A stretch of DNA of 64,000 bases from Candidatus Poribacteria bacterium (GCA_021295755.1 JAGWBT010000001.1:2349-66348); one strand, 5' to 3'. Positions 4,943-24,100 are shown, counted from the first letter of the stretch. Notes: generated by a model not told the origin, from the sequence alone. Numbers and translations: made by a program.

Positions 4943-6478
4943 TCACGCCACAATTCTCGCTGGTTTGCCCTGTTGAAGGACAATATGCTTTTTCCATTTT
5001 ACATCGTATTGTTTAGGAAAATCCTCTCGATAATGTGCGCCGCGACTCTCAGTGCGCAGAACTGCTGCTTCCGTTATCAATGCCGCAACATCGTGCATAT
5101 TTTGAAACTCAAATTCCTCGATATTGTGCCAATGGGAATTCAGTTTTAGCGCTTTCAATTCATCGAATGTTGCCTCTAAATCTTTACTATCTCTAACAGG
5201 CCCCACCTGCTGCCACATCATCTCTTGCACGAACTCCTGTACCGCTTCAATCGCAGCGTCGGGAGATGCTGTTTGAGAGAGAGTAAAGTCATCAGCAGAG
5301 GAAATACGGAGGTTCGCATAGCTGCCAGATTGGATCGAGCGTGCATATTCCACAGCTTTCCTCCCGGCGCGCGTACCAAACACAATACATTCAAATAAAG
5401 GATTGTGTGCCAGTGGACTTGCCCCGTGAACGCCGGTACAGGCAACCTCACCACACGCATATAGCCCACGGACGGATGTCTCTGCGTTTAGATTCGTGCA
5501 AACACCGCCCATCATGAAATGTGCGGCGGATCTGACAGGAATAACATCGGTGGTAATATCAATTCCAAACTGATGGCAAAACTGATAGATATTGGAAAAG
5601 CGACCTCGTATAAAATCAGATGATAGGTGGGTTATATCTAGATAGACACATGGGCTTCCGGTTAATTCCATCTCATTCCAAATCGCACGAGCTACGACAT
5701 TACACGGCGCCAGTTCCTCCATTTCGTGGTATCTTGCCATGAACCGTTCCCCGCGCGAATTAATTAAAATACCCCCAGCCTCACGTGCCCCTGTACCAAT
5801 CAAACAGTGCGATGCGTCCATCAGGAACAGAGTCGTCGGATGAAATTGGATAAACTCCATGTCCATCATCTCACAGCCCGCCCGCCAAGCTGCCGCGTAA
5901 CCATCGCCTGTTGCAATCGCAGGGTTCGACGTACATTGAAAGATGTTTCCAAGCCCGCCTGAGGCGAGGATGGTAGCTTTGGCAAAAATGCAGTGAAGCG
6001 CGTCGTTAATAAGGCTAACGACCCCATAGCATCTATCCCCTTGCGTCATCAAGTCGACTACAAAGGCTTGTTCGATTACCCGCACATTCTTCTGGCCTTT
6101 GAAGTAATCGGCTAATGTCGTTTCCTCCTCTTTGTCACAATGTGTTCGTGCCTGAATCAATTCTGACACCTGTTGAATACCCTTTTCAACCATCACCTCG
6201 ACAGCAGGCTGATTGCAGAGGCCAAGACCCGCTTTGAGAGTTGCTTCAACATGGGAAGCGGGCGTAATCTCTTCACTCATGATGGCAGAAATTCCACCTT
6301 TAGCATCGGGGTGATTATCTTCTTTTATCGCTTCCTTAGTAATTAGTAGGACATCACCGTGCTGGCTGGCTTCCATCGCTGCGTTTAGCCCGGCGCTCCC
6401 GGTACCAATCACTAAGAAATCGGTGTCAATCCTTGGTAATTCGGCTGAATCAAATTGGACGATATATTGACGGGTCAT
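4943..6478 (-). CDS. nadB: L-aspartate oxidase (FAD-dependent; succinate dehydrogenase/fumarate reductase flavoprotein family)
   Basis: N-terminal FAD fold (VIGTGSAGL). Segments TSNPAIATGDGYAAAWRAGC..EFIQFHPT, ELAPCNVVARAI, SAAHFMMGGV, GLYACGEV..TGVHGA and ESRGAHYREDFP align block by block with E. coli NadB. Confidence 0.8.
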   Translation of the reverse strand: MTRQYIVQFDSAELPRIDTDFLVIGTGSAGLNAAMEASQHGDVLLITKEAIKEDNHPDAKGGISAIMSEEITPASHVEATLKAGLGLCNQPAVEVMVEKGIQQVSELIQARTHCDKEEETTLADYFKGQKNVRVIEQAFVVDLMTQGDRCYGVVSLINDALHCIFAKATILASGGLGNIFQCTSNPAIATGDGYAAAWRAGCEMMDMEFIQFHPTTLFLMDASHCLIGTGAREAGGILINSRGERFMARYHEMEELAPCNVVARAIWNEMELTGSPCVYLDITHLSSDFIRGRFSNIYQFCHQFGIDITTDVIPVRSAAHFMMGGVCTNLNAETSVRGLYACGEVACTGVHGASPLAHNPLFECIVFGTRAGRKAVEYARSIQSGSYANLRISSADDFTLSQTASPDAAIEAVQEFVQEMMWQQVGPVRDSKDLEATFDELKALKLNSHWHNIEEFEFQNMHDVAALITEAAVLRTESRGAHYREDFPKQYDVKWKKHIVLQQGKPARIVA

Positions 6479-6620
6479 TATAGATCTGATACGGTTAGGA
6501 GGATTATACGTGCCCTCCTCTCTTGAATGTAGCCTTGGTTTCGTTCAAAGAAGGCTGGCGTTTTACTACCGGTACGTAAAACTATTGCCAAACATAGGAT
6601 CACACCACAGTCCGTATGTG

Positions 6621-7031
6621 TCAAAAAGCACCAGCAACTTTGATCACCTTTCCGTTTCCCTCGACGATTCGAACTCCATCTTCTGAATCGATGTGTGCTT
6701 CAACTTCGATGAGACGCTTTCCCAACTTAACTAGATTGGCGGTAACAACCAGTTTATCGCCCGCCATTGCAGGTTTCTTGAATCGGACCTCAAGCTGCGC
6801 CGTTACCGCAGGTCCATCAAAGCTCGCGATACCCACATAGGTAATCGCTTCATCGAGGAGTGTACTCAAGATTCCGCCGTGGATTACATTTGCCCAGCCT
6901 TGAAAATGACCGGGGGGTGTGCACTCAATCTTGACCCGCGTTCCATCGGGGGAGATATCTGGATTAACCTGCAATCCAAAAGGGTTTTCCTTACCACATG
7001 CAAAACATTGATTGTTGTTCTCAACGCGCAT
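6621..7031 (-). CDS. PaaI/YbgC-like hotdog-fold thioesterase
   Basis: 136 aa. CFACG..NP.GL near N-terminus, HGG motif and LLDEA motif typical of PaaI-family thioesterases. Confidence 0.75.
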   Translation of the reverse strand: MRVENNNQCFACGKENPFGLQVNPDISPDGTRVKIECTPPGHFQGWANVIHGGILSTLLDEAITYVGIASFDGPAVTAQLEVRFKKPAMAGDKLVVTANLVKLGKRLIEVEAHIDSEDGVRIVEGNGKVIKVAGAF

Positions 7032-7182
7032 CCATCAACTCCTGCTGATTTGTCAAACCTAACATAAAATCGTATTGTAGCACACCGTATGACAAAAGGC
7101 AAATGAAATCCAGAACCTTACCTGCCATTATAACCGGAGCAAATATCAGCTACTAACGCTGAAATTTTTGCTGATAATTCTC

Positions 7183-7211
7183 TTGACAGAAACACGAATA
7201 TTTTGTAAACT
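7183..7211 (+). promoter_or_regulatory. sigma70-type promoter upstream of the HEAT-repeat lipoprotein gene
   Basis: TTGACA (7183-7188), 17-nt spacer, TAAACT (7206-7211). Lies about 85 nt upstream of ATG 7298. Confidence 0.45.
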
Positions 7212-7297
7212 TAACTTCCACGCAAAAGATATATGCGCTGAGAAGGACGTTCTACCCAATAAATCCCTTAAATGAAAGAGGAGAAAAAGAGTTAGAT

Positions 7298-8518
7298 ATG
7301 AAAAAGTTTTCAACCCTACTGATATTTCTTATTTTGGCGGTTAGTGTCGGGTGTGAGCAAGAACAACCTATTACACAACTTGAAGTCGGGAAAAATAAGC
7401 TGCTCAATGCCGGTTTAGCAATCGAGGCCGTTAACCACCTGAAAAGAGCGGAAATTGAGGAAGCCAAAACCGAGGCGGAAAAAGTGGAACCACGGGCATT
7501 GTTATTGATTGCCTACTCATATGCCATCTTTACCGGGGATGCTAAAACTCAAGAAGCTGAAATTCCGGGATTGGAAGCCGAGTATAAACAAGCACGGGAG
7601 GAAAGGATTGCAACATTAAGCAGCACTGAAATGAAGAAAATACTGCAACTGCTGGCTGAAAGACATCGTACACAAGACGCAACTATACAGATCTTGGTCG
7701 ATAAAGGAGCAGATGCTGCTCCTGTATTACTCGAATATCTTGGCACTAGAAGGTATATGGTCCTTAGACCCGACTTGATTGAGATCCTATATCAAATCGG
7801 GTCCGAAGCTATAGACCACTTAACCGCTGCACTCAAGAATGCCGAAACCTCCCCAGAGATGAAAATGACACTGACGCAGTTGATTGGGCGGATAAACGAT
7901 CCGCGCGCTATTCCTGCTCTAGAGGCAGTCCAAAGCGGGAGTACCCCGGGGCTGAGAATGGAAATCAACATCGCGCTTTATAACCTTGGCAAGCAAGAGT
8001 ATAGAACAGAAATCATCAATGGGTTAAACGATAACGATGTTGAGGTGCGGCGTGCAGCTGCGCAAGCGATGTTAAAACTTGACGATCCGCCGGTAGATGA
8101 AATTGTTAACGCGCTCAAGGATCTCGATCCCCGAGTGCGTATGTACGCAGCCCAAACGCTTAAACAATATCCAACTGAAAAAGCTATCGATCGGCTCATT
8201 GAAATTCTGGTAGCTGATACAGACGAGTCCGCTAGAGAAGCAGCCGGAAAAGCTTTAATCGTTCATGCTAGTCAAGATTTTGGACAAGGGATTGCACGGC
8301 AACTCATTCAAGCGTTACCGACTGTGAGCGATCCAAAAGAGAGGATACGAATTGTCTTAGTCCTCAAAAAAGATGCACTTATAAAGCAGATTAAGAACGC
8401 ACCAAGAACGTATGATAGTAATATTGAACTTGACCTCTATCTTTATTCTGCAAACGTAGAACAGAACGATATGGTTAAAGAAGAGCTCAGCATGTTGTTG
8501 AATACTTTGGGACGTTAA
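7298..8518 (+). CDS. HEAT-repeat (PBS-lyase-like) lipoprotein
   Basis: Signal peptide with lipobox (LAVSVGC). Repeated A..AL..LGD / VR..AA.AL helical repeat units. RBS AGAGGAG. Paralogous to 16860..18158. Confidence 0.75.
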   Translation: MKKFSTLLIFLILAVSVGCEQEQPITQLEVGKNKLLNAGLAIEAVNHLKRAEIEEAKTEAEKVEPRALLLIAYSYAIFTGDAKTQEAEIPGLEAEYKQAREERIATLSSTEMKKILQLLAERHRTQDATIQILVDKGADAAPVLLEYLGTRRYMVLRPDLIEILYQIGSEAIDHLTAALKNAETSPEMKMTLTQLIGRINDPRAIPALEAVQSGSTPGLRMEINIALYNLGKQEYRTEIINGLNDNDVEVRRAAAQAMLKLDDPPVDEIVNALKDLDPRVRMYAAQTLKQYPTEKAIDRLIEILVADTDESAREAAGKALIVHASQDFGQGIARQLIQALPTVSDPKERIRIVLVLKKDALIKQIKNAPRTYDSNIELDLYLYSANVEQNDMVKEELSMLLNTLGR

Positions 8519-8991
8519 AGGGGCTCTTGAGCGCTTGAAAATACCACGATGCTCTCAGCCATCTTGCGTGAATTGATACAAAATACCGGCGATATCGACT
8601 GAAACAGCATATATTTAACTCTAACCATTGATTGGGTAATGTCGTTTGCTATGTAGCCGTGCAAGATGCGGTGTAGTAGCGCATATAAGTTGCAATGTAT
8701 AAAGTCGGTGAATAGTCGTTAATTTTGCCCAGTATAAATCGCGTCCTAGAGTTTATTCAGTCATTTCTCGGTTCTCGGTGGTAAAACTAGGTCTAGTTGA
8801 TTCAACCAGCAGATTTTTCTTTCTAATGCTGGTTATTTGATTACTTGTTGCTAATCTGATATCGGAGAACCATACGCCATATTTCCAGGATCTTTAAGAT
8901 AATTCTGTGTTGTTAACACACCGAACCCTATATCACCTGAAAATATCCCAACATTTAATTCTCCCGGATAGCGACTGGAAGTAGGCCGACT

Positions 8992-9684
8992 ATGTCCCGT
9001 TTATGTTCCGCACTCGGAACAGTTGTTAGCCCAGCTACCCATGTTGATGTGCCCGGACAGACGGACTACAAGGGTCGGTTTATTGTACTGTCACCGATCA
9101 ATCCGCAAGCTGATGCTCAAGAACTCTACAGCTGCACCCACGGCTCGGACATGAAGGAGCAGATATGGACCTACATGAGTTATGGTCCCTTTGACAGTGT
9201 ACAGGGTATGCGACAGTGGCTTGAAGTTAGTGCAAAATCGAAAGATCCACTCTTTTTCACGGTACATCATCGCGAATCGAAGCGCCGGGTGGGGATGGTG
9301 GGTTTTCTAAACATCATCTCCGATATGCGACGACTCGAGTTAGGACACATTTGGTATTCGCTCAATGCTCAAAGATCAAACGTAAATACGGAATGTATAT
9401 ATCTAATGCTCTGTGAGGCATTCGATAGGCTGAAATACCGTCGCGTGGAGTGGAAATGTGATTCCCTGAATAAGCGATCGCGACTCGCCGCCCTCCGTCT
9501 CGGTTTTCAGTTTGAAGGTATCTTCAAACAACACATGATCGTGAAAGGTCGAAATCGGGATACTGCATGGTATTCACTATTAGACAACGAGTGGGCTGAT
9601 GTGAAGAAGAACATGGAAATATGGTTGTATCATAATCCGAACCAGCAGTTGTCCTTAACAACACTCAATAGCAATAGGTCCTGA
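8992..9684 (+). CDS. GNAT family N-acetyltransferase (RimJ/RimL-like)
   Basis: 230 aa. Acetyl-CoA-binding-like segment (RRVEWKCDSLNKRSRLAALRLGFQFEG) typical of Acetyltransf_3 GNATs. Confidence 0.7.
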   Translation: MSRLCSALGTVVSPATHVDVPGQTDYKGRFIVLSPINPQADAQELYSCTHGSDMKEQIWTYMSYGPFDSVQGMRQWLEVSAKSKDPLFFTVHHRESKRRVGMVGFLNIISDMRRLELGHIWYSLNAQRSNVNTECIYLMLCEAFDRLKYRRVEWKCDSLNKRSRLAALRLGFQFEGIFKQHMIVKGRNRDTAWYSLLDNEWADVKKNMEIWLYHNPNQQLSLTTLNSNRS

Positions 9685-9899
9685 CTGATTGAAATTGTCT
9701 TCAAATCCTATAATCTGAAAAAAGTCTGCTGTTGTCGACGCTGAGCACGAGTATCCAGAATTAGATTAAAAATAGCCTTCTACTCCCCTCTCCTTCCACT
9801 TTGCGATTCAGTTCTTAACTATGCAGTATGTACTGCCTGCTGAAGCAGTTGCTGCGTGAAATCTGAATCCTCGCCTCTTCTTCCTATATTTTTCTGATG

Positions 9900-9928
9900 T
9901 TGACATCCCAAATTTGCTATGGTATAAA
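9900..9928 (+). promoter_or_regulatory. sigma70-type promoter upstream of the TamB-like gene
   Basis: TTGACA (9900-9905), 17 nt, TATAAA(T) (9923-9928). Lies about 80 nt upstream of ATG 10010. Confidence 0.5.
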
Positions 9929-10009
9929 TTGGAGCGAATCCCGACATCCGCTTTTGGCGTTTTCTGGCGTTGAAACCTTGTCAAAAATAAAAAGGTTGAG
10001 ATAAATTCT

Positions 10010-13000
10010 ATGCGCAAACGATACAAACGCTTAATCCTATTTGCCTGTCTTGGAGGGGCTGTAATCCTTGGAGGCTTTCTGTTTTTGCGTTCTTCCTATA
10101 TACTTAACCGGGTGCGCCTAGTGTTAGAGTCTCAACTGCAGAAACAGTTGAAACACTCGGTCACCATTGACGAGATTTCTGGAAATGTGTTCACCGGCTT
10201 GAATATCAAGAACATTGAGATCGCAGACGAGAACCCAGAAAATCCTCCGCTAATTGCTCTAGATGAAATACGGATAAGATATCGATTATGGAGTTTGGCG
10301 CGGGGGAAATTCCTCATCACTCAACTGCATTTTATCCATCCCCAGATTAATACACGCACCGGGGCAGACCGAACTATCAATTTAGCCAAGCTAATCCCGA
10401 AACGCGAATCCGGCACGGGCGTGAATTTTCCGCTTCAACTGCTAATCTCTGATATGAATATCGAAGATATCAGTATTGAAGGTGGAATTATCAATTTTGA
10501 AGATGAGAGCAGCGCCCTCAGAGTTGCGATAAGGGGGATTTACAGTCGTAGTCGTGTTGACGGTCCTTTGAGCAACTGGAAGTATGGCGGGCATCTGGAG
10601 GTGCGAGATGGACGTTTTGAACTGAACGGTGTTGAAACGAAGATCGATGAATTTAGAACTGAATTTGCATTACAGAAGAATCGGGGTGCATTGCACTCAT
10701 TACGCTTGGCGCTAGGAAATTCTCTGCTGACCGTCGCTGGTGAGGCAAATGCTCTTGGCAAACAACCTCCCCAAATCAAGACACAAATCCAAATAACCCT
10801 CGACCTCCGTGACGTACAAGAAATTCTGTCTGCTCCGGGGGAAATTGAAGGGGTGGCAGAAGTAGCTGTGGAAGCCAGTGGCCCACTTTCGGAAGTTGTC
10901 GGGACTATTGGAATTAGCCTTCCCATTGTCCAGTTAAATGCACTTGAATTTGAGAATTTCACTCTCCAAGCGGAGTTCACACCGCGTGGCGTTAAAGTTA
11001 CCAATATTGATGCCCTGTTCGCCTCCGGACAGCTGACAGGGGCGGCAGAAGTTGACCTTCAGCCTACCAAAGACGATTCGCAACAAGAGGATTCGCAACG
11101 CCTCGCCTACGAAGGTTGGTTACAACTTAACTCGATTCGCACCGAGCAACTGTTACCCATTATAGATTTCCCCCAAACTCTCTTGGACCTAAAGGCAGAT
11201 TTGGATGGTAAAGTCCAATTTAGCGGTAACGGCACAGATCTCCACAAAATCAACCTTGATGGAAACCTGCAGCTGGATAATGCTATGTTAAACGGCGTGC
11301 CAATCCTCCGTTCGGAAGCACGTTATCAACTCAGCAATGAACAGCTGTCTATTTCAGCGAACTTTGACGCTGCCCAGATCGAAATCAATGGAACTCCCGG
11401 CTTAACCGGTCCGCACGATATGGACCTGAATATCACGAGAATTGACATCGGTAAATTCTCGCGAATCTTGCAAGTGCCGGACCTTGCTGGCGAAGGCACG
11501 CTTACCGGGAAAAGTAGCGCCGGTGCAGGAAACATTTCTCTTTATTCGCTGCAAGGTCTTCTCAGGGTTCCAGAAGCAACGTTGTATGAGGTGCCAATTG
11601 GGGTGCTGACAACAGATTTTCATTATACCCAAAATAAGGTGCTCCTGAACTCGATACGCCTTGTCAAAGGGGAAAGCGAATTGATGGCCGATGGGGTTGC
11701 TCATATGGAGGGAGATACGCCGATAGATCTCAAGGTGCGTGCTCAGCCACTCCAGATCGCAGACTATGTGAGGCTAGCAGGCGATGATTATCCAATTGAA
11801 GGCATTGTGACCGGTGAGTTGGTGCTGGATGGAACTTTAGCACGGCTTAATGGTCGCGGGACCCTTCAGATTGAGAACGCTAAAGCATGGGATCTGGCGC
11901 TTGATCCGTTAACCCTGCCGCTAGAGATTGAGAATTATCTCGTGAAAATCCCAGATTTTGAATTGTTAACCCGCGGCCAAAAAGGCGTCCTCAACGCACA
12001 GCTTGCCCCAAATCAGGACTATGTAATCGACTTTCAAAGTGAGTCCATGCGACTAGCAGAGATTGCGATTGCACGCGGAATGACCGATTTCCTGTTGGAT
12101 GCCGATTTGGTTGTAACAGCGAACGGTCAAGCAAACGCGGCGGATCCACTCGTGAATGTAACGTTCGACTTCTCAAATGTTACCTACGCAGGCAATCCAC
12201 TAGAGGATGTTTACATAACTGGCAGCTACAGAAACAACGCTCTCAATTTTGAAGGTATGGGTTTTAATGATACCTGTCAGATTCGCGGAGTCCTGGAATC
12301 AGTTATAGGCAGCCCTTATCAGATTGTTGTTGATGGTCGGGGAGTCGATCTGCTTCCATTCCTACGCATCTTTAATGTGGCGGATTATTTCACAGGTACA
12401 GCCGATGGTAGCGTTGAAATTGAAGGAATGTTAGAGGATTTGTCGAAATTTAAGTTCCAGATGTCCCTGCCCGAGGCTGCGCTGGATGTTAATGGTCGTC
12501 AGTTGACTAATCCGGCTCCAATTCGCGTTGCCTTTGTGGATGACCTTTGGCATATTCAATCTTTGGTCCTTGCTGATACACATGATGGCAGCCCATTCCT
12601 GAGTGCGGAAGGTTTTTTCCCTATTCCGGGCGGGCCAGAATCCCCTCCATCACATCGCGATTCTGAGACTACCAATACATTCAGTTTCAATGTAGAATCC
12701 GATGGGTTTCCGCTTGAGGGATTGTCGTACCTGTTGGGACTACCGCCACTCCTTTCAGGAAACGCCAGTTACAAATTCACGGGGGCTGGAACCTATGAAG
12801 CGCCACAGTTAGCGCTGAATTGGAACATTCCAGATCTAGTGCTTCAAACCCCTATCGGACAAATACCAATTCATGAAACTGTGGGCGGTCTCGTCTATAA
12901 GGACGGGAGCCTTAACGTTGAATCTTTTGATCTGCTCCTACTTGGCAATCCCATTGAAGTGCAAGGGAAACTACAAATCGATCTCAAATCTTTGCCATCT

Positions 13001-16000
13001 TCACGCCTTAGCCTCCGTGCTTCCTGTCCAAATTTTAGGTTAGATACGCGCGCCTTTCAGAATTTACCGGAGTACCTAAACAATCATTTAATCCTGTTCG
13101 ATCTGGATGCACAAATTACTGGCAGTCTGGCTCAGCCGGAGTTGATCGCCTCAATTAATGCGACGCAAAAGACACTACAACTCGTGGATCTACCCCAGCC
13201 TATTGAAGACTTGAAAGTTGCGCTTCAGGTCTCGGCTGGGCAGAAAGTATCACATGATTTAATCACTATAACTCTGAAATCCGCCGATTGGCAGTTCGAT
13301 GGTGGACGGTATCACGCATCAGGAGTTTGGAGTTTGCCCAAAACAGATAAGGGGTTACGCCTGACGTCATTTATAGACGTTCTGGAACAAAGCGATTCAG
13401 TCAAGTTTCAGCTGGACGTCAATGGGGCGGATGTAAATCTCGTTACTCCTCTGAACTATATCATGAAACGTGAACTCCACGATATAGGAGGTAGAGCTGA
13501 TATAGCACTTGAGTTACAGGGCAGCGGTTATCACCCCGACCAAATATCAGCAACCCTCATGTGCGGTAATCTGCGTGTCGAGATCAACAACCGTCACTTA
13601 CACAATATCGATAATATTTGGGGTCATTTCAGAAACGGACAACTGATACTTGCGCCCGCCCAGATAGGTGAGGACAATATCGCTTGGCTTAACGCGAGAG
13701 GCACTATGGGCCTCGATGGAAATCTGAACCTCCACTTAGGAATCGATCGAGTGCCTTATGGTATACTTATGCCGGCGATAACGCTAACTCTGTTCGAGCG
13801 ATCTTTTCTCAAGTTTGATGGTTTCCTTACAAGCCAAATCCGTGTCCGTGGTAATCTTACGAATCCAATTATAACCGCAGAATGGGAGTCGGATGGTTAC
13901 GTTGGAAATGCCAACCTTAAAGACAGTGGAAGAGCTAATTATAAAGAAAAATTGCTTTCCATCTACAATACGCAGCGCATCGCTGGGGTAGACAAGCAGT
14001 TGGAAATGTCTGGCACAATTCCAATTGATCTTGCCTTTCAGCCGCTACCCCTTAAGGACCGATTCCTAGATCTGCCCATTGACTTGAAACTCCAAGGACA
14101 ACAGATTTCATTGGCGCCCCTAGGCTTACTGCTCCATCCGGTGATTGAACACACCAATGGGGTTGCTGACATAGATCTCAGAATACAAGGTACAACCGCG
14201 TCGCCTTATCCGCAGGGTACATTTTCGGCTCAACAGGGCACGGTGAAGTTCGCAAACTTTGATACACCTATTTCAAACGGGACGTTTGAGTTACAGGCGG
14301 ATAGAGGGCAAATCCGTATCAGCACGCTCAGTTTTCAGGTCGGTCAAGGAGAATATACAACGGAAATCAATTGCGCGTTGGCGGGTATCATCGCAACTGA
14401 TTTTGAGATTAGCCGGTTCACAGCACATAAAGCGAGAATTGCCGACTTTGTTGGAGATCAGTCACGGTTACTTAATCCTACCGTGTCCGGGTTCTTACCT
14501 CCGGAAGTAATTGGGACAGAGGCGATACCGGCTGAAGTGTTGGACGGATATATTACGGCGGAAGCTAGTTTAAAAATCCCGATAAACCAGTTCGTCATCC
14601 CCGGCAAAACCGCGTGGATCCCGCAATTCATCAAGCCATTCAATCCACCAAATGTGATTAAATATGTAACGGGCCAGCTAAATATCCAGAATATTCTGAT
14701 CGAAGGCTTAGACTATAAGATCCGGAACCCTAGACCAATTGAAATCAAGCTGGCAAACCAGAAACTCAGCTTGGAAGAAGGATTTAGTCTGGAAGACCAA
14801 GAGTTAACGGTAGGCGATGCAAAACGCCTTCGAGTGATGGGATTTGGAAGTTGGGAGCTTGGAAAAAAATTACTCTTTCATGTTGAAATGCAGAATCTGG
14901 ATCTCGGATTCATTTCGGGGTTCCTCCCTGCAGCTTACGCTGTACGGGGCTCCCTCAACGCTTCGCTTGATATACGTGGAACGGATGCGGACCCGAAAAT
15001 CTCCTTCGCTTGGGAAACTCCGGAACTACGGATAAACCAGGCAGAGGTTGATCAATTTACCGGTAATATCACATACGAAAATCGAAAGATTCGAGTTAGT
15101 GGTAGGCAAGGCAGTGATGCCCAGGTGTCTATTGGGAAAAATCGCGCTACGCTGTCCGTGTTAATTCCATTTTATCTATCTCTAGTAGAATTCAAAGCAG
15201 AACCGTTGCCAGAAGATATTGAGGGCGGATTAGATATAGCCATCGAAGATTCAGAATTCCTATCCCTTATTTTTCCCCAGTTTGCTTTTACCCAAGGCAC
15301 GGGTGTCGTTAATGCTACGCTTGGCGGTCAATTTGATTCACCGATGCTTAAAGGATCCGCAAATTTGAGAGGGGTTGCGTTTGAACTGCCGAAATCACAT
15401 ATCAGTTTGGCAAATGGAACAGCGCATCTCAATTTGACTGAGAAAGGTGTGAGCATCCAACGTATAACAGGTGATCTGAATGGTGGCACCTTTGAGATTA
15501 GCGGTATGATACAGTCTAACTGGTTCGATGTACGCCATATAGATCTCGTCGCTGAATTGAGTGAGGGAACCACGTTTAGGAAACCGGGACTTTACGAAGT
15601 TGAGTGTCAGCGGATCAATTTACAAATGAGAGGAAATATCACGACAGATGGAAATCTTCAACTTCCACCGTTAAGGGGTTCGATTCGTGTCAAGAGGGGG
15701 CTATACGAGCAAGACTGGAGGCAGTTGGTTCAGGATCTGCTTGATAAGACGGCCGAGGTGCAGTTTGAAGTCTGGTTTGATTATCCCATCGTGCGCGATC
15801 TTCAGCTAGATCTTGATGTCATCGCTCCGAACAACTTTTGGGTAGAATCAAATCTGGGAGAGGTTGTCACATATATCGGAGAAATTGAAATCGAAACATC
15901 TATCAACGGTGAACTCGTCGGCCCCATTCAGAAACCGATTTTTAGCGGGAGGGTGGATCTGTTAGAAGGTGAATTATCTCTCTCCGGTGCTCACAAATTC

Positions 16001-16594
16001 GAGATTAGAGAGGGGTCGTATGTAGAAAACAAAAATGCGCTAGAATTTAACCCGTCGTATCAAATTACCGCCGAGACGATCGAACCAATTCGGACCGTCC
16101 AGGTTCCAACTACAGACGGGGAAGTCCATACGAGGGACCTCAGAGTTGAAATGCATTTTAATGGTTATCTTAGGGATAAACATAATCCGGAGTTTCGAGC
16201 GGAGGTTCTCAGAAAAGGCACCGGCGAACATTACGACCTGACTCAACAGCAAATCCTGTCTATTTTAACTTTCGGTGGCGCGAATCCGCTCGACTCTGAA
16301 GGCTATACGCCAGCCGATTTCGTTCAAGGGATTTTAGGTAGAACACTTGCAAAAGCAACCGGCTTTAGCAAAACTCATTTCGACGTGAGTCCGGACAATT
16401 TTGAACAGTCGCGATTTCTTTTGACGAAGGAACTCTCGGAACACCTTTCGTTGACCTACTCATCTACCTTTCAACTTCACACAGAACCTCGCATTGAGGT
16501 TGAATATCAGATTGATCGACACATTTATATCAAAGGAGAACGGAATGAGCGTGGAAAATACGGCATAGACCTCAAGCTAGAACGGCGATTTTAG
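10010..16594 (+). CDS. tamB: giant TamB/AsmA-like translocation-and-assembly-module protein
   Basis: 2194 aa. Single N-terminal membrane anchor (LILFACLGGAVILGGFLFL). Long low-complexity beta-rich body with degenerate repeats. C-terminal segment of DUF490/TamB character ending ...LERRF. Located two genes upstream of a BamA homologue. Confidence 0.7.
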   Translation: MRKRYKRLILFACLGGAVILGGFLFLRSSYILNRVRLVLESQLQKQLKHSVTIDEISGNVFTGLNIKNIEIADENPENPPLIALDEIRIRYRLWSLARGKFLITQLHFIHPQINTRTGADRTINLAKLIPKRESGTGVNFPLQLLISDMNIEDISIEGGIINFEDESSALRVAIRGIYSRSRVDGPLSNWKYGGHLEVRDGRFELNGVETKIDEFRTEFALQKNRGALHSLRLALGNSLLTVAGEANALGKQPPQIKTQIQITLDLRDVQEILSAPGEIEGVAEVAVEASGPLSEVVGTIGISLPIVQLNALEFENFTLQAEFTPRGVKVTNIDALFASGQLTGAAEVDLQPTKDDSQQEDSQRLAYEGWLQLNSIRTEQLLPIIDFPQTLLDLKADLDGKVQFSGNGTDLHKINLDGNLQLDNAMLNGVPILRSEARYQLSNEQLSISANFDAAQIEINGTPGLTGPHDMDLNITRIDIGKFSRILQVPDLAGEGTLTGKSSAGAGNISLYSLQGLLRVPEATLYEVPIGVLTTDFHYTQNKVLLNSIRLVKGESELMADGVAHMEGDTPIDLKVRAQPLQIADYVRLAGDDYPIEGIVTGELVLDGTLARLNGRGTLQIENAKAWDLALDPLTLPLEIENYLVKIPDFELLTRGQKGVLNAQLAPNQDYVIDFQSESMRLAEIAIARGMTDFLLDADLVVTANGQANAADPLVNVTFDFSNVTYAGNPLEDVYITGSYRNNALNFEGMGFNDTCQIRGVLESVIGSPYQIVVDGRGVDLLPFLRIFNVADYFTGTADGSVEIEGMLEDLSKFKFQMSLPEAALDVNGRQLTNPAPIRVAFVDDLWHIQSLVLADTHDGSPFLSAEGFFPIPGGPESPPSHRDSETTNTFSFNVESDGFPLEGLSYLLGLPPLLSGNASYKFTGAGTYEAPQLALNWNIPDLVLQTPIGQIPIHETVGGLVYKDGSLNVESFDLLLLGNPIEVQGKLQIDLKSLPSSRLSLRASCPNFRLDTRAFQNLPEYLNNHLILFDLDAQITGSLAQPELIASINATQKTLQLVDLPQPIEDLKVALQVSAGQKVSHDLITITLKSADWQFDGGRYHASGVWSLPKTDKGLRLTSFIDVLEQSDSVKFQLDVNGADVNLVTPLNYIMKRELHDIGGRADIALELQGSGYHPDQISATLMCGNLRVEINNRHLHNIDNIWGHFRNGQLILAPAQIGEDNIAWLNARGTMGLDGNLNLHLGIDRVPYGILMPAITLTLFERSFLKFDGFLTSQIRVRGNLTNPIITAEWESDGYVGNANLKDSGRANYKEKLLSIYNTQRIAGVDKQLEMSGTIPIDLAFQPLPLKDRFLDLPIDLKLQGQQISLAPLGLLLHPVIEHTNGVADIDLRIQGTTASPYPQGTFSAQQGTVKFANFDTPISNGTFELQADRGQIRISTLSFQVGQGEYTTEINCALAGIIATDFEISRFTAHKARIADFVGDQSRLLNPTVSGFLPPEVIGTEAIPAEVLDGYITAEASLKIPINQFVIPGKTAWIPQFIKPFNPPNVIKYVTGQLNIQNILIEGLDYKIRNPRPIEIKLANQKLSLEEGFSLEDQELTVGDAKRLRVMGFGSWELGKKLLFHVEMQNLDLGFISGFLPAAYAVRGSLNASLDIRGTDADPKISFAWETPELRINQAEVDQFTGNITYENRKIRVSGRQGSDAQVSIGKNRATLSVLIPFYLSLVEFKAEPLPEDIEGGLDIAIEDSEFLSLIFPQFAFTQGTGVVNATLGGQFDSPMLKGSANLRGVAFELPKSHISLANGTAHLNLTEKGVSIQRITGDLNGGTFEISGMIQSNWFDVRHIDLVAELSEGTTFRKPGLYEVECQRINLQMRGNITTDGNLQLPPLRGSIRVKRGLYEQDWRQLVQDLLDKTAEVQFEVWFDYPIVRDLQLDLDVIAPNNFWVESNLGEVVTYIGEIEIETSINGELVGPIQKPIFSGRVDLLEGELSLSGAHKFEIREGSYVENKNALEFNPSYQITAETIEPIRTVQVPTTDGEVHTRDLRVEMHFNGYLRDKHNPEFRAEVLRKGTGEHYDLTQQQILSILTFGGANPLDSEGYTPADFVQGILGRTLAKATGFSKTHFDVSPDNFEQSRFLLTKELSEHLSLTYSSTFQLHTEPRIEVEYQIDRHIYIKGERNERGKYGIDLKLERRF

Positions 16595-16717
16595 ATGTGT
16601 CCAACTCTTATCGTACTGGTTGCATCACAACGCAAAATGCACTCTGCAAAATGGTTGGTGATAGACACCCATGATACAAAAACCTAACAGAATTGCCATA
16701 ATCTCGTAACATCTCGC

Positions 16718-16726
16718 TGTTACAAT
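16718..16726 (+). promoter_or_regulatory. possible extended -10 promoter element (TGnTACAAT) upstream of second HEAT-repeat gene
   Basis: TGT-TACAAT at 16718-16726. No good -35 at 17 nt. Confidence 0.25.
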
Positions 16727-16859
16727 GACGTTTTCTTATGCCTGGTCTTTGAATGTTTGATCGCATCTTTGGCGTCCCACTATCTATAGGCTAGATGGTG
16801 ATGTCAGTGCGAAACCATCACCCTAAAGAAATCAAAAAAAATCAGGAGAACAAAACTTT

Positions 16860-18158
16860 ATGAAGAAACATGTAACAACCATACCTGCTATTCCTCAAGC
16901 AGATTCTGCCATCTTGAACCGTGCAAAGGATTTCTCGGGAACCATGCAGAAATTCGTCACTACACTAAGAACGGCGCTTTGGGCAGGACTAATACTATTA
17001 ATCTTGCTAATTGGATGCGAACCAAAACAGAAAATTGACCATTTGAAAGTTGGACGGCAACAACTGCTAAATTCAGGGCTAGCAGTTGATGCGATTAAGC
17101 ATCTGAAGAAAGCGGAAATAGATGAGCTAGACAAGGCTCCGGCTCACGCTTTGTTAGTTCTCGCATACACGCACGGTCTCTCAACAGAAGCCGCACAGGT
17201 ACAAGGACTGGAAGCTGAGTTCAAGAGCGAACGGACACAGCGGTTAGCTGCGCTAGGAAATGAGGAAATCGAGTACCTCCTCCAAATTTTGGTTAGGCGT
17301 TCTCGCCTCCAGAAAGATGCGATGCAAGTCGTGGTAGACAAAGGTGTAGACGCGCTTCCTGTCCTGATCGCTGCCCTAGGTCAGGCTGATTTTCTAAACC
17401 TACATGGCGACATCGTAGAGATGATGTATCAAATTGGAAGTGGTGGTATTAGCTTAATGGTTGACGCTATTCAGAACGCTGACATAACCACAGAGGTCAA
17501 AGTTGCGCTCGTACGCCTTATCGGACGGATCGGCGAACCGCAGGGACTTGACGATCTGGAGACAACTCGCAACGATACCGATGATGCCGGACTGCAGATG
17601 GAAATAAGTGTCACGCTCTATAGGCTCGGAAAGCATGAATATGCAACGGCAATCATTAAGGGATTGACTGACGATGATGTGAATGTACGTCGTGCCTCTG
17701 CACGGGCGATGACACACCTTAGCAATTACCCGGTTGGGCAACTCCTTAAAGTGCTTAAAGACACCGATGATCAGGTCGTTACCTATGCAGCGCAAGCATT
17801 TCAAAGGCAGCCGGATGCACAAGCGGTCGCAGCCCTCACCAGCGTCCTCACAGGCACAGCAGATAACGCTGCAAAACAGGCATCTTCGGAAGCACTGCGA
17901 ATCCATGCCCAGAAGAAGTTGACAAAGGGGTTGACCCCCCAGCTCATTAAAGCACTGATTTCGGGTGAAATTGGGAACGCAGAAGATCGACTACGCATTG
18001 TTCAACTGCTTCGAAAAGAACCGCTGATGAACCAAATTAAGGTGACCGCATTGGTCAATCCACAATTGGTATACGAACTTGATCAATACCTAAAACAAAC
18101 TGAGACACATGAGATAGTTAAAGGAGAGTTGAGACGGCTCCTTGCCCAAGTTGAGTGA
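16860..18158 (+). CDS. HEAT-repeat lipoprotein, paralog of 7298..8518
   Basis: Aligns along its length with the 7298 product (LKVGRQQLLNSGLAVDAIKHLKKAEIDE vs LEVGKNKLLNAGLAIEAVNHLKRAEIEE; VVDKGVDALPVL vs LVDKGADAAPVL; DDDVNVRRASARAM vs DNDVEVRRAAAQAM). Lipobox LLIGC. An alternative start at Met29 (MQKF...) would give a cleaner signal peptide. Confidence 0.75.
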   Translation: MKKHVTTIPAIPQADSAILNRAKDFSGTMQKFVTTLRTALWAGLILLILLIGCEPKQKIDHLKVGRQQLLNSGLAVDAIKHLKKAEIDELDKAPAHALLVLAYTHGLSTEAAQVQGLEAEFKSERTQRLAALGNEEIEYLLQILVRRSRLQKDAMQVVVDKGVDALPVLIAALGQADFLNLHGDIVEMMYQIGSGGISLMVDAIQNADITTEVKVALVRLIGRIGEPQGLDDLETTRNDTDDAGLQMEISVTLYRLGKHEYATAIIKGLTDDDVNVRRASARAMTHLSNYPVGQLLKVLKDTDDQVVTYAAQAFQRQPDAQAVAALTSVLTGTADNAAKQASSEALRIHAQKKLTKGLTPQLIKALISGEIGNAEDRLRIVQLLRKEPLMNQIKVTALVNPQLVYELDQYLKQTETHEIVKGELRRLLAQVE

Positions 18159-18462
18159 GAAATAACAGTTGTCAAATCTGAATCACAGTCTCTGTTGCCC
18201 CGTTTAGTGTAAGTTGAATACCTGATCAGTCTTTTGCAGAAATTTACGGCAGTTGATCGCGTTCACTGAAGTGTTGTTTCTTTAATCGATAGCCTCAAGC
18301 GTGTCGTCTGCCTCAATAATGAAAAGCGTAATCTGTAATCCACCGTTCCAAAATCTGCCTACAATCCCGTTGTTCCGGAATCGTTGAAAAACCAAATTCC
18401 ATGGCGTCAATCCTACCGTACTGACTGAGTTGCGAGGAACGGAAGGAGGTGGAGATCTACGA

Positions 18463-21285
18463 ATGGATACACGAACAGATCAGCGAATTCATAAACCACC
18501 GAATCAACTTCCCTCTAATCCATCTTTCATGTCCTGCCTTTTTCCGGTAGCGTTTCATGTGATGCTTATCTTCTCCGCTGTTGCCCTCAACTCCGCTTGG
18601 AGCCGATCTGGGAGTCTCCCCGTTGTTGAAATCCAGTACAGGCTAGATGGTGCAATCCTCAATTCAGGTTCGCTGTATGCGGATGTGACGCGTAAGACGC
18701 GGGTCCAAATTGGAAATACCGCGTCGCCTTATCAAATCCGCAAAAGCATTGAAGGGATATATACAACTGGTCTCTTTTCTCAGGTTACAGCAATCGAGAT
18801 GCCTATACAAGATGGGGTCCGATTGACGTTCGATCTCACTAGCAAGGTACGAATTGGAAAAATTGCGTTTAAGGGGAACAGTCTAAGCGATGATCTGCTC
18901 CTAGGCGTAGTGGTCTCTCACCCAAAAAAGGAATATTCCATGGAGATCGCAGAAGATGATCGGCGTAGAATTCTTGATTTATACAAAGATTACGGATATT
19001 TTCAGACAGAAATTCGTCTGAGCGCCTCTCCTAATCCCGACTCCTCACATCAGATGGATTTGTCATATAATATCTACGAGGGTAACCAAGCGCTTATTCA
19101 GGCCATCCGGTTTGAGGGTGTCAAATCAATTGATATTGAGAAGTTAGAAAAAAACACTAAAAGCAAAAAAGGTGAAATCTACCGCAAGCAATCCGTTGAT
19201 GCCGATACCAATCGCCTTCGAGAGTTATATCGGAAAAATGAGTATTTGACTGTAAAAGTCATACCCGACCCAGTCTACAATGACTCAACTGGTACAATTA
19301 TCCTTAATTACAAAATTATCGAGGGGAAAAAGATCAGAATCGAATTTATTGGCGACGGTATTGACGAATCGGAGCTTGAGGAAACTCTGGGTCTGTTCAA
19401 ACGGGATAGTTTTTCGGAGACGATTCTTAAAAGTACAGAACAACAAATTCTTCAAATCTATCAAGGGAAAGGGTATTACGAACCGATAGTGAGCCACAAG
19501 GTTGAAAGAATATCGGGACAAGAAGAAGTTATCTATTTCGAGATTCAATTGGGACAAGCCCCGCGAATTCGGAATATAAATTTCGATGGGAATACGGAAT
19601 TTTCAGATACAGTCTTGCTAGATCTGATGGAAACCCAGCCTCGCAGTCGATTTGTAGTCCCCGGATTTGGATGGCTATTCTCCAAAGGTATTTATAACCC
19701 AGCAACACTTGAAATAGACAAGCATGCACTGGAACTCTTTTACAAGAACCGTGGTTATCCAGATGTTCGGGTCGCGAGTGATGCCCCGGAGATCGATAAA
19801 GATAATAAGCTCATTTTGCATATAAAAATTAACGAAGGGGAACAGAAAATCGTAGACCAGGTTGCAATCGAAGGCGCGACAATCTTTGAAACGACTGAAT
19901 TATACACAAAACTAGACGCGCAAGCTGGGAAACATTACAGCGATGATATAACGAGCGATGATGAGCGCTATCTCGAATCCCTCTACAGTCAGGAGGGATA
20001 TATCTATGCACATATCAGCCATCACTATAATCCAGAAAGCCGCACGCTCACCTATCAGATTTCTGAGGGGGTTCAAGCCAAGTTTGGCAAATTCAAATTC
20101 GATGGGGATGGGAAAATCAAACTGCATGTTTTGCAGCGCGAATTTGAAAATCTCAGTTTGGTTGAAGGAGCAGTGTTTAACGAGGAGCGTTTATTTGCAG
20201 AATCTCGACGATGTTTATCGACTACCGGTCTCTTTACCGAGGTCGAAATTAAGGTGCCCGACCGATATGAGGAAAATACGGAAATTATTGATGTTGACGT
20301 AAACGTTGAGGTACGAAAACCAGGAGCAATCAGCGTCAGCGGGGGATATATCTCCTCTGAGGGTATTCGTGGAACATTAGGACTTGCCCACAACAACCTG
20401 TTCAAACGTAACATGAAAATTAGTGGGAAAGTTAGTCGGGGGACAAGAGGTAATCTGTATGAGATAACGTTGATTGAACCGTGGTTCAAACTGGCACCCC
20501 TCGATAAACTGATTGGACCCACAATAGGGACATTCCGTCTGTTCAACGATAATCTGGAGGAATACGAAGATATACGGGCGCGAGGTGGAACGGCAAACCT
20601 TGCCAAACGGCTTGGACAATACAGCAATCTTGCAGTACAGTACAAATCTCAAGATCTACGCGATCGTGAAGACCCGCCTAAAATTCAGACTACGGTGAGT
20701 AGTCTCGGTATCGAATTCCATCGAGACAGCCGAGATCATTTCCTGAACCCCAAGAACGGCTGGTTTAATGAAGCTGCGATTGAGTATGCCGGTGGATTTC
20801 TCAAAGGGCAAACCAGTTTCTTCAAATTTACAACCGATCATCGCTACTATTGGCAGTTTTGGGGAGATGCTGTCCTTGCCAGCGCAATTCGCCTTGGGTA
20901 TGAAAAAGGGTTGAGAGGAAACCGTGACCGGCAAATTATCTCCTTTGAGCGTTTCTATGCCGGCGGATCAAATACGGTTAGGGGATACCCGGAGCGGAGC
21001 CTTGGACCGGAAGATGAATTCGGCAATCATCGTGGGGATGTGTTATTCATTCTGAACACGGAACTCCGTTTTCCAATCTATAGGTTCATCGGTGGTGCGC
21101 TATTTTTGGATACAGGTAATGTATGGGATAAATTTTCGGATATCCAGGGAGACCTTCCACGTATAGCAATAGGGTCAGGTGTACGGTTAGATACTCCACT
21201 TGGACCTGCCCGCGTCGATATTGGGCTACCGGTAATGGAAGAATTTAAGCCCATCCTTTACCTGCAACTTGGCCAAGCATTTTGA
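18463..21285 (+). CDS. bamA: outer membrane protein assembly factor BamA (Omp85 family)
   Basis: Signal peptide; multiple POTRA-like repeats; C-terminal beta-barrel ending in aromatic residue (…LQLGQAF). Start chosen at ATG 18463 after GGAAGGAGGTGGA; the track ORF begins at 18430. Confidence 0.85.
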   Translation: MDTRTDQRIHKPPNQLPSNPSFMSCLFPVAFHVMLIFSAVALNSAWSRSGSLPVVEIQYRLDGAILNSGSLYADVTRKTRVQIGNTASPYQIRKSIEGIYTTGLFSQVTAIEMPIQDGVRLTFDLTSKVRIGKIAFKGNSLSDDLLLGVVVSHPKKEYSMEIAEDDRRRILDLYKDYGYFQTEIRLSASPNPDSSHQMDLSYNIYEGNQALIQAIRFEGVKSIDIEKLEKNTKSKKGEIYRKQSVDADTNRLRELYRKNEYLTVKVIPDPVYNDSTGTIILNYKIIEGKKIRIEFIGDGIDESELEETLGLFKRDSFSETILKSTEQQILQIYQGKGYYEPIVSHKVERISGQEEVIYFEIQLGQAPRIRNINFDGNTEFSDTVLLDLMETQPRSRFVVPGFGWLFSKGIYNPATLEIDKHALELFYKNRGYPDVRVASDAPEIDKDNKLILHIKINEGEQKIVDQVAIEGATIFETTELYTKLDAQAGKHYSDDITSDDERYLESLYSQEGYIYAHISHHYNPESRTLTYQISEGVQAKFGKFKFDGDGKIKLHVLQREFENLSLVEGAVFNEERLFAESRRCLSTTGLFTEVEIKVPDRYEENTEIIDVDVNVEVRKPGAISVSGGYISSEGIRGTLGLAHNNLFKRNMKISGKVSRGTRGNLYEITLIEPWFKLAPLDKLIGPTIGTFRLFNDNLEEYEDIRARGGTANLAKRLGQYSNLAVQYKSQDLRDREDPPKIQTTVSSLGIEFHRDSRDHFLNPKNGWFNEAAIEYAGGFLKGQTSFFKFTTDHRYYWQFWGDAVLASAIRLGYEKGLRGNRDRQIISFERFYAGGSNTVRGYPERSLGPEDEFGNHRGDVLFILNTELRFPIYRFIGGALFLDTGNVWDKFSDIQGDLPRIAIGSGVRLDTPLGPARVDIGLPVMEEFKPILYLQLGQAF

Positions 21286-21397
21286 ACGTGCGATCGACAA
21301 CACAAAGACCATCTTGATATCTTATTGGTTCTGCTTTAATTCGATGCAGACCTCTAACAGTTCTGGTTTACGTCAACAAGAAATAAGGAACGGACAG

Positions 21398-22288
21398 ATG
21401 AAATTGACACGTGAACAAATTGAAGAATTCAGAACTCAAGGGGTATTAATCGTCAAGAATGCCGTACCTGAACCCGGGTTAGATCCTGTGATTGCCGAAC
21501 TTGAGGCTTGGGTTGATAGACGTGCGTGTGAGCTACACACTGTGGGGAAAATTCAGGAACCGTATCCTGATGCTCCCTTCGAGATACGCTTTGGGCTCCT
21601 CTATAAACAGTGCAAAGAGGTGGGTGATGGACTCGACATCAGTATATCTCGCGGTCAAGCGATGTTTCAGTTTCTGCACAATAAGCATCTGCTTGATACA
21701 GTAGAATCACTCGTCGGTCCAGAAATCACCTGTAATCCTATTCAACATGCGCGGACTAAACCGCCGACAGCATACGATGGACACACTGGGCCATCATTCC
21801 ACGTCGTTCCTTGGCACCAAGATGCCGGCGTGATGATGCCCGAGGCTGAAGTTTCAAACATCGTAACTTGTTGGCTGCCTCTGGGAGATGCAACGATCGA
21901 AAGGGGATGTATGCAGGCGCTTCCCGGCGTGTTTGATCTTGGTTATCTGAGTCACTTCAAAGAAGAAGCCGCGACTGTTACGATCCGCCCTGAAGTGCTA
22001 CCGTCAGTCGAACCGATGGATCTCGTGTGTTCCAAAGGTGATGTCGTTCTATTGAATAAATTCACGCCACACCGTTCAGTTCCCAACGTCTCGGACAAAT
22101 GCCGGTGGTCCCTGGATCTGCGCTACCAGACCACGGGACATCACACGGGCAGAACAGCTTACCCAGAATTCATAGTACGCTCTCCAAGCAATCCTGCGAG
22201 TGTTTTGCGCGATTATGACGAATGGTCCCGGCTTTGGATTGATGCCCTTGAGAAGCCCAGAGGGGTAACGATGCACCGGACAGATTAA
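21398..22288 (+). CDS. phytanoyl-CoA dioxygenase (PhyH) family Fe(II)/2-oxoglutarate oxygenase
   Basis: MKLTREQIEEFRTQGVLIVKNAV N-terminus typical of PhyH family; HxD...H candidates (WHQDAG ... TPHRS). ATG 21398 preceded by AAGGAA; the track ORF starts at 21269 overlapping bamA. Confidence 0.7.
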   Translation: MKLTREQIEEFRTQGVLIVKNAVPEPGLDPVIAELEAWVDRRACELHTVGKIQEPYPDAPFEIRFGLLYKQCKEVGDGLDISISRGQAMFQFLHNKHLLDTVESLVGPEITCNPIQHARTKPPTAYDGHTGPSFHVVPWHQDAGVMMPEAEVSNIVTCWLPLGDATIERGCMQALPGVFDLGYLSHFKEEAATVTIRPEVLPSVEPMDLVCSKGDVVLLNKFTPHRSVPNVSDKCRWSLDLRYQTTGHHTGRTAYPEFIVRSPSNPASVLRDYDEWSRLWIDALEKPRGVTMHRTD

Positions 22289-22350
22289 TCGCGATTGCGG
22301 CTTCATAGGTTAATTTCCATCTAGATCAACGTAAATAGCGGAGGAAATTC

Positions 22351-23238
22351 ATGTTCAATTTTTGTGGTGCATGGCCCGCTTTGGTCACACCTTTCACTGC
22401 CGAAGATAAAGTGAATGTACCGGTGTTACAAGAGCTAGTAGAGTATTTGCTAGATAAAGGGGTAGGAGGATTTTACGTCTGCGGAGGCACCGGAGAAGGG
22501 CTATTCATGGTGCCAGAAGAACGAAAGTTGGTCACTGAAACCGTGGTTGACCAAGTAGATGGGCGCACACCTGTCATTGCGCATGTTGGTAGCATGATTG
22601 TCGGTGATGCGGTCCAGTTAGCACAACACGCACAAGAGGCAGGAGCTGCGGGAATAAGCAGCGTTATCCCACCGATGTTTCAGAACAGTGAAAGTCTCTA
22701 TACTTACTTCGAGCGAGTTGGAGCTGCTGCACCTGAAATACCGCTGCTTACGTACATATTCGGTGGCCCCACCGACGCCGTCGCGCTGATGCGGCGGTTG
22801 ATGGATATACCGACCGTTGCCGGTGCGAAGTACACGGGACCCAATATGTACGAATTTAGAGAGATTGTAGAGCTGCGAAGAGATAACTGGAGGATTTTTT
22901 CGGGTATGGATGAGCAGTGTATTTACGCTGCGATGCAGGGCGCGTGCGGCAATATCGGTTCAACCCTCAATTATAACCCCGGAATCTATCGTGAGATACA
23001 CAACAACTACGGAAACGGGAATATCGCTAAGGCGCAGGAACTCCAAGTGTATGCCAATAAAATAACCCGTGTGCTGTTTTCCTTCGGTTTCTTTGGTGCG
23101 ATCAAAGAGGTGATGTGCATGTTGGGCTTCGACTGTGGGAAACCGCGGCTGCCTCAACTTCCATTCGCTGTGGAGAAGCGAGAGGAGTTAAAAGCGGAAT
23201 TAGAGTCCATCGATTTCTTCACCGTGGCAGAAATGTAA
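22351..23238 (+). CDS. dihydrodipicolinate synthase/N-acetylneuraminate lyase (DapA) family enzyme
   Basis: ALVTPF motif near N-terminus, GGTGEG motif, Schiff-base lysine region (AGAKYTG). 295 aa. Confidence 0.8.
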   Translation: MFNFCGAWPALVTPFTAEDKVNVPVLQELVEYLLDKGVGGFYVCGGTGEGLFMVPEERKLVTETVVDQVDGRTPVIAHVGSMIVGDAVQLAQHAQEAGAAGISSVIPPMFQNSESLYTYFERVGAAAPEIPLLTYIFGGPTDAVALMRRLMDIPTVAGAKYTGPNMYEFREIVELRRDNWRIFSGMDEQCIYAAMQGACGNIGSTLNYNPGIYREIHNNYGNGNIAKAQELQVYANKITRVLFSFGFFGAIKEVMCMLGFDCGKPRLPQLPFAVEKREELKAELESIDFFTVAEM

Positions 23239-24087: not shown

Positions 24088-24100
24088 GATTGATTCTCCA

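Follow-up and report, generated by a model that had tools for sequence, protein, structure and literature searches.

The subject of this analysis is a putative outer-membrane assembly locus in a 64,000-nucleotide stretch of DNA (JAGWBT010000001.1:2349-66348 of GCA_021295755.1; hereafter the window). The source organism is a Candidatus Poribacteria bacterium: an entry annotated as [quoted passage not shown] shows 100% identity with the first protein of the locus. Reading of the open reading frames (ORFs) revealed five co-directional genes on the + strand in 7298-21285, which encode a TamB-like protein, BamA, two predicted lipoproteins (LP1 and LP2) and a GNAT acetyltransferase. A first reading made from the sequence alone had listed the same five genes with the GNAT gene between LP1 and tamB, and their positions and strand were borne out by the ORFs and Pfam matches:

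7298..8518, + strand: LP1, HEAT-repeat lipoprotein precursor of 406 amino acids (aa) (ORF, HEAT_2, AlphaFold2 model)
8992..9684, + strand: GNAT acetyltransferase (Acetyltransf_3, RimJ/RimL-like), 230 aa (Pfam PF13302, E=1.6e-13)
10010..16594, + strand: TamB-like AsmA-family protein, 2194 aa (Pfam PF04357, DUF748)
16860..18158, + strand: LP2, 432-aa paralogue of LP1 (ORF, HEAT_2, 40% identity to LP1)
18463..21285, + strand: BamA, 940 aa from ATG 18463, the ORF opening at TTG 18430 (TIGR03303, POTRA, Omp85)

The 2194-aa protein had been called TamB/AsmA-like and, indeed, Pfam PF04357 (TamB) was found at residues 1818-2194, covering profile positions 2-381 of 381 with 93.1 bits (cutoff 22.4). At the N-terminus, DUF748 was matched with 58.8 bits (cutoff 50), matches to YhdP and AsmA stayed under their cutoffs, and a hydrophobic membrane anchor (LILFACLGGAVILGGFLFL) with the signal-anchor helix MRKRYKRLILFACLGGAVILGGFLFL is present. 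These findings show that the protein is AsmA-like and inner-membrane-anchored, with a long middle region and a C-terminal TamB/DUF490 domain. The NCBIfam equivalog for proteobacterial TamB (NF047952) was matched with only 67 bits at a cutoff of 825 and, therefore, the window protein is a distant member of the TamB family and not a proteobacterial orthologue. TamB of E. coli has 1259 aa; taking this value, the window protein is ~1.75 times as long. The "giant" size is no speciality of this locus: TamB has 2106-2395 aa at the divergent tamB-bamA loci described below as well, so that the large size is typical of the poribacterial lineage. Lengths above 1800 aa were also seen elsewhere, in other large TamB homologues of 1808-2363 aa, and plant TIC236 is another large TamB homologue. 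A 2287-aa protein of another organism (P0197, on a 5.35-Mb contig) combines TamB_N, DUF748 and TamB with POTRA and Omp85; either a fusion of TamB with Omp85 or a merged gene call could account for it.

BamA was matched by TIGR03303 (OM_YaeT) with 434.3 bits (equivalog cutoff 297.15) and by the Pfam families POTRA (E=4.6e-65) and Omp85 (E=2.6e-46). Windowed Pfam scans resolved seven POTRA units, six of them clear and the N-terminal one marginal, at approximately residues 85-137 (the marginal one), 140-218, 223-299, 303-372, 378-470, 475-547 and 551-628, showing that the protein is a bona fide Omp85 insertase with seven POTRA domains. The identity given in the sequence-only reading was thus correct, but its length of 951 aa, counted from the TTG of ORF 18430-21285, is probably too long: since gene callers give the homologues 940 aa, the start is likely ATG 18463. 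BamA seems to begin ~22 aa ahead of a hydrophobic core without a charged n-region of its own. Extended leaders were seen on both neighbouring envelope genes, LP2 (16860-17018) and BamA (18463-18600).

Operons of tamB and bamA are known, and their distribution was described by Heinz et al. 2015 (PMC4494059; see also PMC5582053, PMC13382580). In Borrelia burgdorferi, BB0794-BB0795 make up a hybrid of the β-barrel assembly machinery (BAM) with TAM, the translocation and assembly module; binding of TamB to BamA is published, and the C-terminus of TamB binds the POTRA domains of BamA and was modelled to augment the BamA barrel (PMC5582053, PMC11361582, PMC13382580). The window resembles the Borrelia pair in that an anchored DUF490 TamB is encoded just upstream of a multi-POTRA bamA on the same strand and no gene for TamA is found in the locus. 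As in Borrelia, the two genes abut or overlap at the divergent tamB-bamA loci. Unlike in Borrelia-type systems, a lipoprotein gene lies between tamB and bamA in the window and its paralogue lies upstream. The window proteins also differ from those of known tamB-bamA systems by size, TamB having 2194 aa compared to 1259 aa in E. coli and BamA having seven POTRA domains instead of five. Poribacteria have a tamB-bamA pair of the Borrelia kind with an unusually long TamB of ~2100-2400 aa and, in this organism, a seven-POTRA BamA. By analogy to Borrelia and other lineages without TamA, the C-terminus of TamB would dock on BamA to give a hybrid BAM-TAM bridge from the inner membrane, and one may speculate that the length of TamB and the presence of seven POTRA domains would suit a wider periplasm.

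LP1 and LP2 were both matched by Pfam HEAT_2 above the gathering cutoff (E=3.9e-21 and E=5.8e-13, respectively). The N-terminus of LP1 is MKKFSTLLIFLILAVSVGC, with a signal peptide at residues 1-18 and the lipobox VSVG-C; the protein reads MKKFSTLLIFLILAVSVG-C19 (...LILAVSVG-C19), and Cys19 is encoded by the codon at 7352-7354. In a family alignment of 40 homologues this Cys is invariant and the Gly before it is at least 90% conserved. LP2 carries the lipobox LLIG-C (...LILLIG-C53, codon 17016-17018) after an unusually long leader of 52 aa. An AGGAG motif is located 11 nt before its ATG at 16860, and the start "MKKHV" together with an open leader frame up to the lipobox is retained in ~20 orthologues, in which the length before the Cys is 35-80 aa. 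Their signal peptide and lipobox make both proteins predicted lipoproteins and, as such, putative substrates of signal peptidase II. The conserved surface residues of the family include the region of the invariant R122/R124, R251/R252 and D275/D277. They are 40% identical over ~415 aligned positions, that is along their whole length (E=2e-99), and because the alignment takes in regions outside the HEAT repeats they are true paralogues and not just alike as repeat proteins. HEAT-repeat lipoproteins of 406 and 432 aa with a lipobox, paralogous throughout and without likeness to BamB-E or LptE, were what had been read from the sequence, and all of this was confirmed: the two proteins had no Pfam or NCBIfam match to the BamB, BamC, BamD, BamE and LptE families, and NCBIfam gave nothing beyond far-sub-threshold repeat similarity to CpcE, NblB and TIGR02270.

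The AlphaFold2 model of LP1, based on 40 homologues, has a mean predicted local distance difference test score (pLDDT) of 92, a predicted template modelling score (pTM) of 0.80 and 23 helices. Disorder is found only at residues 1-22, i.e. the signal peptide. According to this model, LP1 is a ~380-residue all-alpha HEAT/ARM-type solenoid that would begin ~7 residues past the lipidated Cys; since the first helix starts at residue 27, the predicted tether after the Cys is very short. Like BamD, LP1 and LP2 are built of helical repeats and, like BamB-E of E. coli and the BAM subunits of Bacteroidota (PMC12611786, PMC12578637), they are predicted lipoproteins encoded beside machine genes. Unlike BamB-E, their fold is predicted to be a HEAT solenoid of the phycobilisome (PBS) lyase type and not a tetratricopeptide repeat, beta-propeller or SmpA/OmlA fold. 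From the PBS-lyase-type HEAT proteins (HEAT_2/HEAT_PBS; CpcE/F, NblB, E. coli YibA, MTH187 and the derived alphaRep designs) they differ by their predicted export and lipid anchor and by family-specific N-terminal (approximately residues 20-110) and C-terminal segments that occur in Poribacteria only. The bilin-lyase context of CpcE/F-type proteins is missing.

The distribution of the family was determined by an exhaustive profile search in which the N-terminal half (mature residues 1-187) was compared to 1.8 billion representative proteins. It yielded ~15 full-length clusters at 50% identity with proteins of 387-472 aa, and the rest of the matches were generic HEAT proteins that covered profile positions 90-178 only. 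Eleven members were read at the sequence level and each of them shows a signal peptide, a Cys lipobox and the family C-terminal motif, and every named member of the ~15 clusters is from Poribacteria. Family loci were collected with 10 kb read on either side, giving 76 in total, of which 69 are loci of species-representative genomes and seven are loci of more distant members; all 69 genome loci are from metagenome-assembled genomes of Poribacteria. The family is found only in Poribacteria and in all poribacterial lineages sampled, with one or two copies per locus. It is well defined and has a confident structural model.

Many of the homologues come from sponge metagenomes, e.g. of Geodia barretti, and eukaryote-like repeat proteins abound in Poribacteria (PMC3909097). 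A fold search with the LP1 model gave generic HEAT/ARM matches only, and among solved structures these folds are mostly eukaryotic. LP1 and LP2 could, therefore, be "eukaryote-like repeat" effectors or surface proteins of the interaction between sponge and symbiont, unrelated to outer-membrane assembly. We regard this as highly improbable: the proteins occur in single or double copy and are strongly conserved, whereas effectors are usually expanded and variable, and the lipobox with the very short tether suggests a membrane protein that faces the periplasm. Divergent members also come from other poribacterial lineages and environmental assemblies, so that the tie to sponges may not hold.

The sequence-only reading had taken the fact that each machine gene is preceded by one of the two lipoprotein genes as a sign of dedicated partners, and had named conservation of the neighbourhood in related genomes as a test of it. 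The window proteins were compared by tblastn to all 76 loci and, indeed, the order thioesterase (- strand), LP1, GNAT, tamB, LP2, bamA is kept in the clade of the window (LP1 identity at least 71%; loci L001-L016, L018, L019, L031 and L065). Since this order is retained in ~20 related species-level genomes, it is not a chance layout. Two genes on the - strand, divergent from LP1, complete the neighbourhood on its upstream side:

4943-6478, - strand: nadB-like FAD oxidoreductase (Pfam)
6621-7031, - strand: 4HBT thioesterase (Pfam)

Outside this shallow clade the conservation fails. A tamB gene was found within 10 kb of the lipoprotein gene in 22 of the 76 loci, namely those of the window clade plus L017 and L020, and neither tamB nor bamA was found within this distance in the other 54 (47 genome loci with 44-49% LP1 identity and the seven loci of distant members). 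In L017 (59% LP1 identity) and L020 (51%) the order is LP1-tamB-bamA with no LP2 between tamB and bamA. Conversely, five loci (L070, L071, L072, L080 and L081) have tamB and bamA without a lipoprotein gene nearby; their products are 25-50% (TamB) and 33-51% (BamA) identical to the window proteins by tblastn, and tamB and bamA abut with a gap of -64 to +177 bp. The bamA gene is thus directly adjacent to tamB at the divergent loci, whereas it is the second gene 3' of tamB in the window. The paired arrangement does not, therefore, single out dedicated partners, although the missing synteny takes away comparative support and does not refute a physical partnership.

Within the window clade, the spacers are ~190-280 bp between tamB and LP2 and 40-490 bp between LP2 and bamA. 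A tight coupling of LP1 and tamB is seen nowhere: the two are kept apart by 1.2-1.9 kb and the GNAT gene, by at least 649 bp at loci that lack this gene and by ~7.7 kb in L006. At the latter locus (OZ252032.1, 12251-18881) ~6 kb of extra DNA lie between GNAT and tamB. The GNAT gene is absent from its position between LP1 and tamB in L011, L013, L017 and L020, and NCBIfam gave weak RimL/RimJ matches only; it is a passenger gene. The thioesterase upstream of LP1 is conserved in L001-L019 and L031. The distant lineage L077 has a nadB-like gene, 52% identical to that of the window, upstream of a 37%-identical lipoprotein gene and has no tamB. Since the nadB-like gene accompanies the lipoprotein there as well, the older synteny of LP1 is anchored on this gene and not on tamB.

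The origin of LP2 was addressed by a neighbour-joining tree of 122 family members, which has three deep groups. LP1-type sequences occur in all clades, LPa is the upstream copy of a tandem pair present in other Poribacteria (see below), and LP2 sits on a long branch that is confined to the window clade and corresponds to one LP2-type cluster at 50% identity (P0207). LP2 shares 37-44% identity with all Entoporibacteria-type copies; compared to each LP1-type sequence, the value is ~41%. An orthology of LP2 and LPa was considered, on which the tree and the pairwise identities (~37-44% to all groups) are equivocal. Two origins would agree with the sequence data, namely a duplication within this lineage with accelerated divergence and an older paralogue that other lineages have lost. 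In both cases, a tamB-bamA junction that contains LP2 is derived and restricted to one clade.

These results lead us to favour, with moderate confidence, the view that the locus is a tamB-bamA pair of the known, widespread kind that underwent a clade-specific rearrangement and the insertion of a paralogue, and that the position of the lipoprotein genes is not demonstrably functional. The rearrangement would have put tamB-bamA downstream of the nadB-like gene and LP1, whose neighbourhood is older, and LP2, a fast-diverging paralogue, would have been inserted into the formerly tight tamB-bamA junction. LP1 and LP2 themselves may be scaffolds that are tethered to a membrane, bind proteins in the periplasm and have a general role in the envelope throughout the phylum. 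Since the positions of the lipoprotein genes are clade-specific, their paired look is a feature of gene order and not evidence that each machine has a lipoprotein dedicated to it; the only evidence for a functional coupling to BAM/TAM is adjacency within a single clade. More generally, a suggestive paired layout can stem from a clade-specific rearrangement together with the insertion of a paralogue, and a functional pairing needs support from wider synteny or from interaction.

Several points weigh against this view. The order of the five genes is stable over substantial divergence, with TamB down to 68% and LP2 to ~70% identity, and a gene that was inserted and kept between tamB and bamA could well be functionally related to them. 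The five genes run in the same direction and none of the spacers has a convincingly predicted terminator, the scan itself being uninformative: the counts in the promoter and terminator consensus scan were at or below the shuffled expectation and, therefore, the scan is silent on operon structure. An Rfam scan of 6000-23000 (E<=1) revealed no RNA element in the long spacers. The genes for the Bam lipoproteins of E. coli, bamB-E, are also unlinked to bamA, and for this reason the missing synteny elsewhere amounts to absence of evidence only. Compared to other LP1-type sequences, LP1 of the same clade is no nearer to LP2, and LP2 may have either of the two origins named above. Finally, the favoured view was derived from sequence and gene position.

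The same observations bear on the possibility that TamB and BamA of the window clade have LP1 and LP2, respectively, as dedicated partners, which would take the role of Bam accessory lipoproteins but with a HEAT solenoid fold. One paralogue precedes each machine gene in an order kept in ~20 species-level genomes, LP2 lies inside an otherwise tight tamB-bamA junction and its accelerated divergence would fit a new function, alpha-solenoids are typical protein-binding scaffolds, and lineage-specific BAM subunits are known in Bacteroidota (PMC12611786, PMC12578637). However, LP1 is kept away from tamB by the distances given above and has its deeper synteny partner in the nadB-like gene, L017 and L020 do without LP2 at the junction, and the proposed interactions of the lipoproteins with BamA and TamB are drawn from position. 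Nor would the two adjacencies count as independent if LP1 had been duplicated locally to give LP2. A one-to-one partnership of this kind is, therefore, quite unlikely in our view. In contrast to BAM accessory lipoproteins, the linkage of LP1 and LP2 to tamB and bamA is confined to one clade.

Other neighbours recur outside the window clade. In the largest poribacterial clade (e.g. L037, 5205-11191; L058, 4722-11185) a tandem LPa-LPb pair is arranged head-to-head with a gene for a ~900-aa Peptidase_M14-like protein. In L027 (4831-11206), which has a single copy, the M14-like gene is further upstream and a gene for a FlgD_ig/CHU_C-domain protein directly precedes the lipoprotein gene. Three deep lineages (L073, L074 and L079) have rlmN followed by the lipoprotein gene. 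These loci bear on the idea that the whole family is a phylum-wide accessory of envelope biogenesis, e.g. a BamD-type stand-in or a scaffold for TamB/BamA, that is usually unlinked to bamA. Presence in every poribacterial lineage sampled, with one or two copies per locus, a lipobox and full-length architecture, is a housekeeping-like pattern that speaks for it, as do the adjacency to tamB-bamA that arose and lasted in one clade and the predicted short tether and solenoid fold. On the other hand, the link to BAM/TAM is positional and restricted to 22 of the 76 loci, the recurrent neighbours (M14-like peptidase, rlmN, nadB-like gene) indicate no particular function, and the fold search returned generic matches only; we consider this idea unlikely.

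A more specific scheme would have the HEAT-solenoid lipoproteins as accessory subunits of the hybrid BAM-TAM, with LP2 on the seven-POTRA arm or on the C-terminus of TamB, LP1 on TamB, and both jointly scaffolding in a BamD-like manner; the window clade alone would then betray the partnership. We put this forward as a rather doubtful, though conceivable, proposal, and even when the partner readings are combined they stay on the unlikely side. Should the lipoproteins really be part of the machine, BAM/TAM would have been rebuilt with lineage-specific subunits in one more case after Bacteroidota, and there would be a first way into the envelope biogenesis of a phylum of sponge symbionts that is uncultivated and ecologically dominant.

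The sequence-only reading had considered the arrangement undescribed. This does not hold for the tamB-bamA operon (PMC4494059, PMC5582053, PMC13382580) but it does for the lipoproteins: a literature search revealed nothing on a HEAT-repeat lipoprotein with BamA or TamB, nothing on a poribacterial BAM and no publication on the lipoprotein family. The novelty lies in the lipoprotein family and in the way two of its paralogues alternate with tamB and bamA in one clade, whereas the pairing of tamB and bamA is already known.

Apart from the genes of the locus, no Pfam match to other outer-membrane-assembly families was found among 33 ORFs of the window that were scanned, i.e. those flanking the locus and, from the interval of 24 to 63 kb, 20 of the larger ones. 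Directly 3' of bamA two PhyH-family dioxygenases are encoded at 21269-22288 (+) and 23260-24168 (-); as listed, the former ORF includes the last 17 nt of bamA, and its true start is probably further downstream. PhyH was reported to be the most abundant domain family in poribacterial genomes (PMC3909097). Approximately 35 kb from the locus, at 56780-58057 (+), a single ORF of 425 aa combines LpxC (E=8e-86) with a FabA/FabZ-like dehydratase (E=3e-32) and is followed by ORFs 57975-58934 and 58961-59764; judged by its domains, this LpxC-FabZ-type fusion shows that lipid A is made by the organism. A Peptidase_M6-like protein with a FlgD_ig/CHU_C C-terminal sorting domain of the type IX secretion type is encoded at 43576-45702 (+). 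Further, a tyrosine recombinase (Phage_integrase, E=1e-37) was found at 53770-54678 (-) and a very strong match to DUF6754 (E=2e-123) at 27336-28286 (-).

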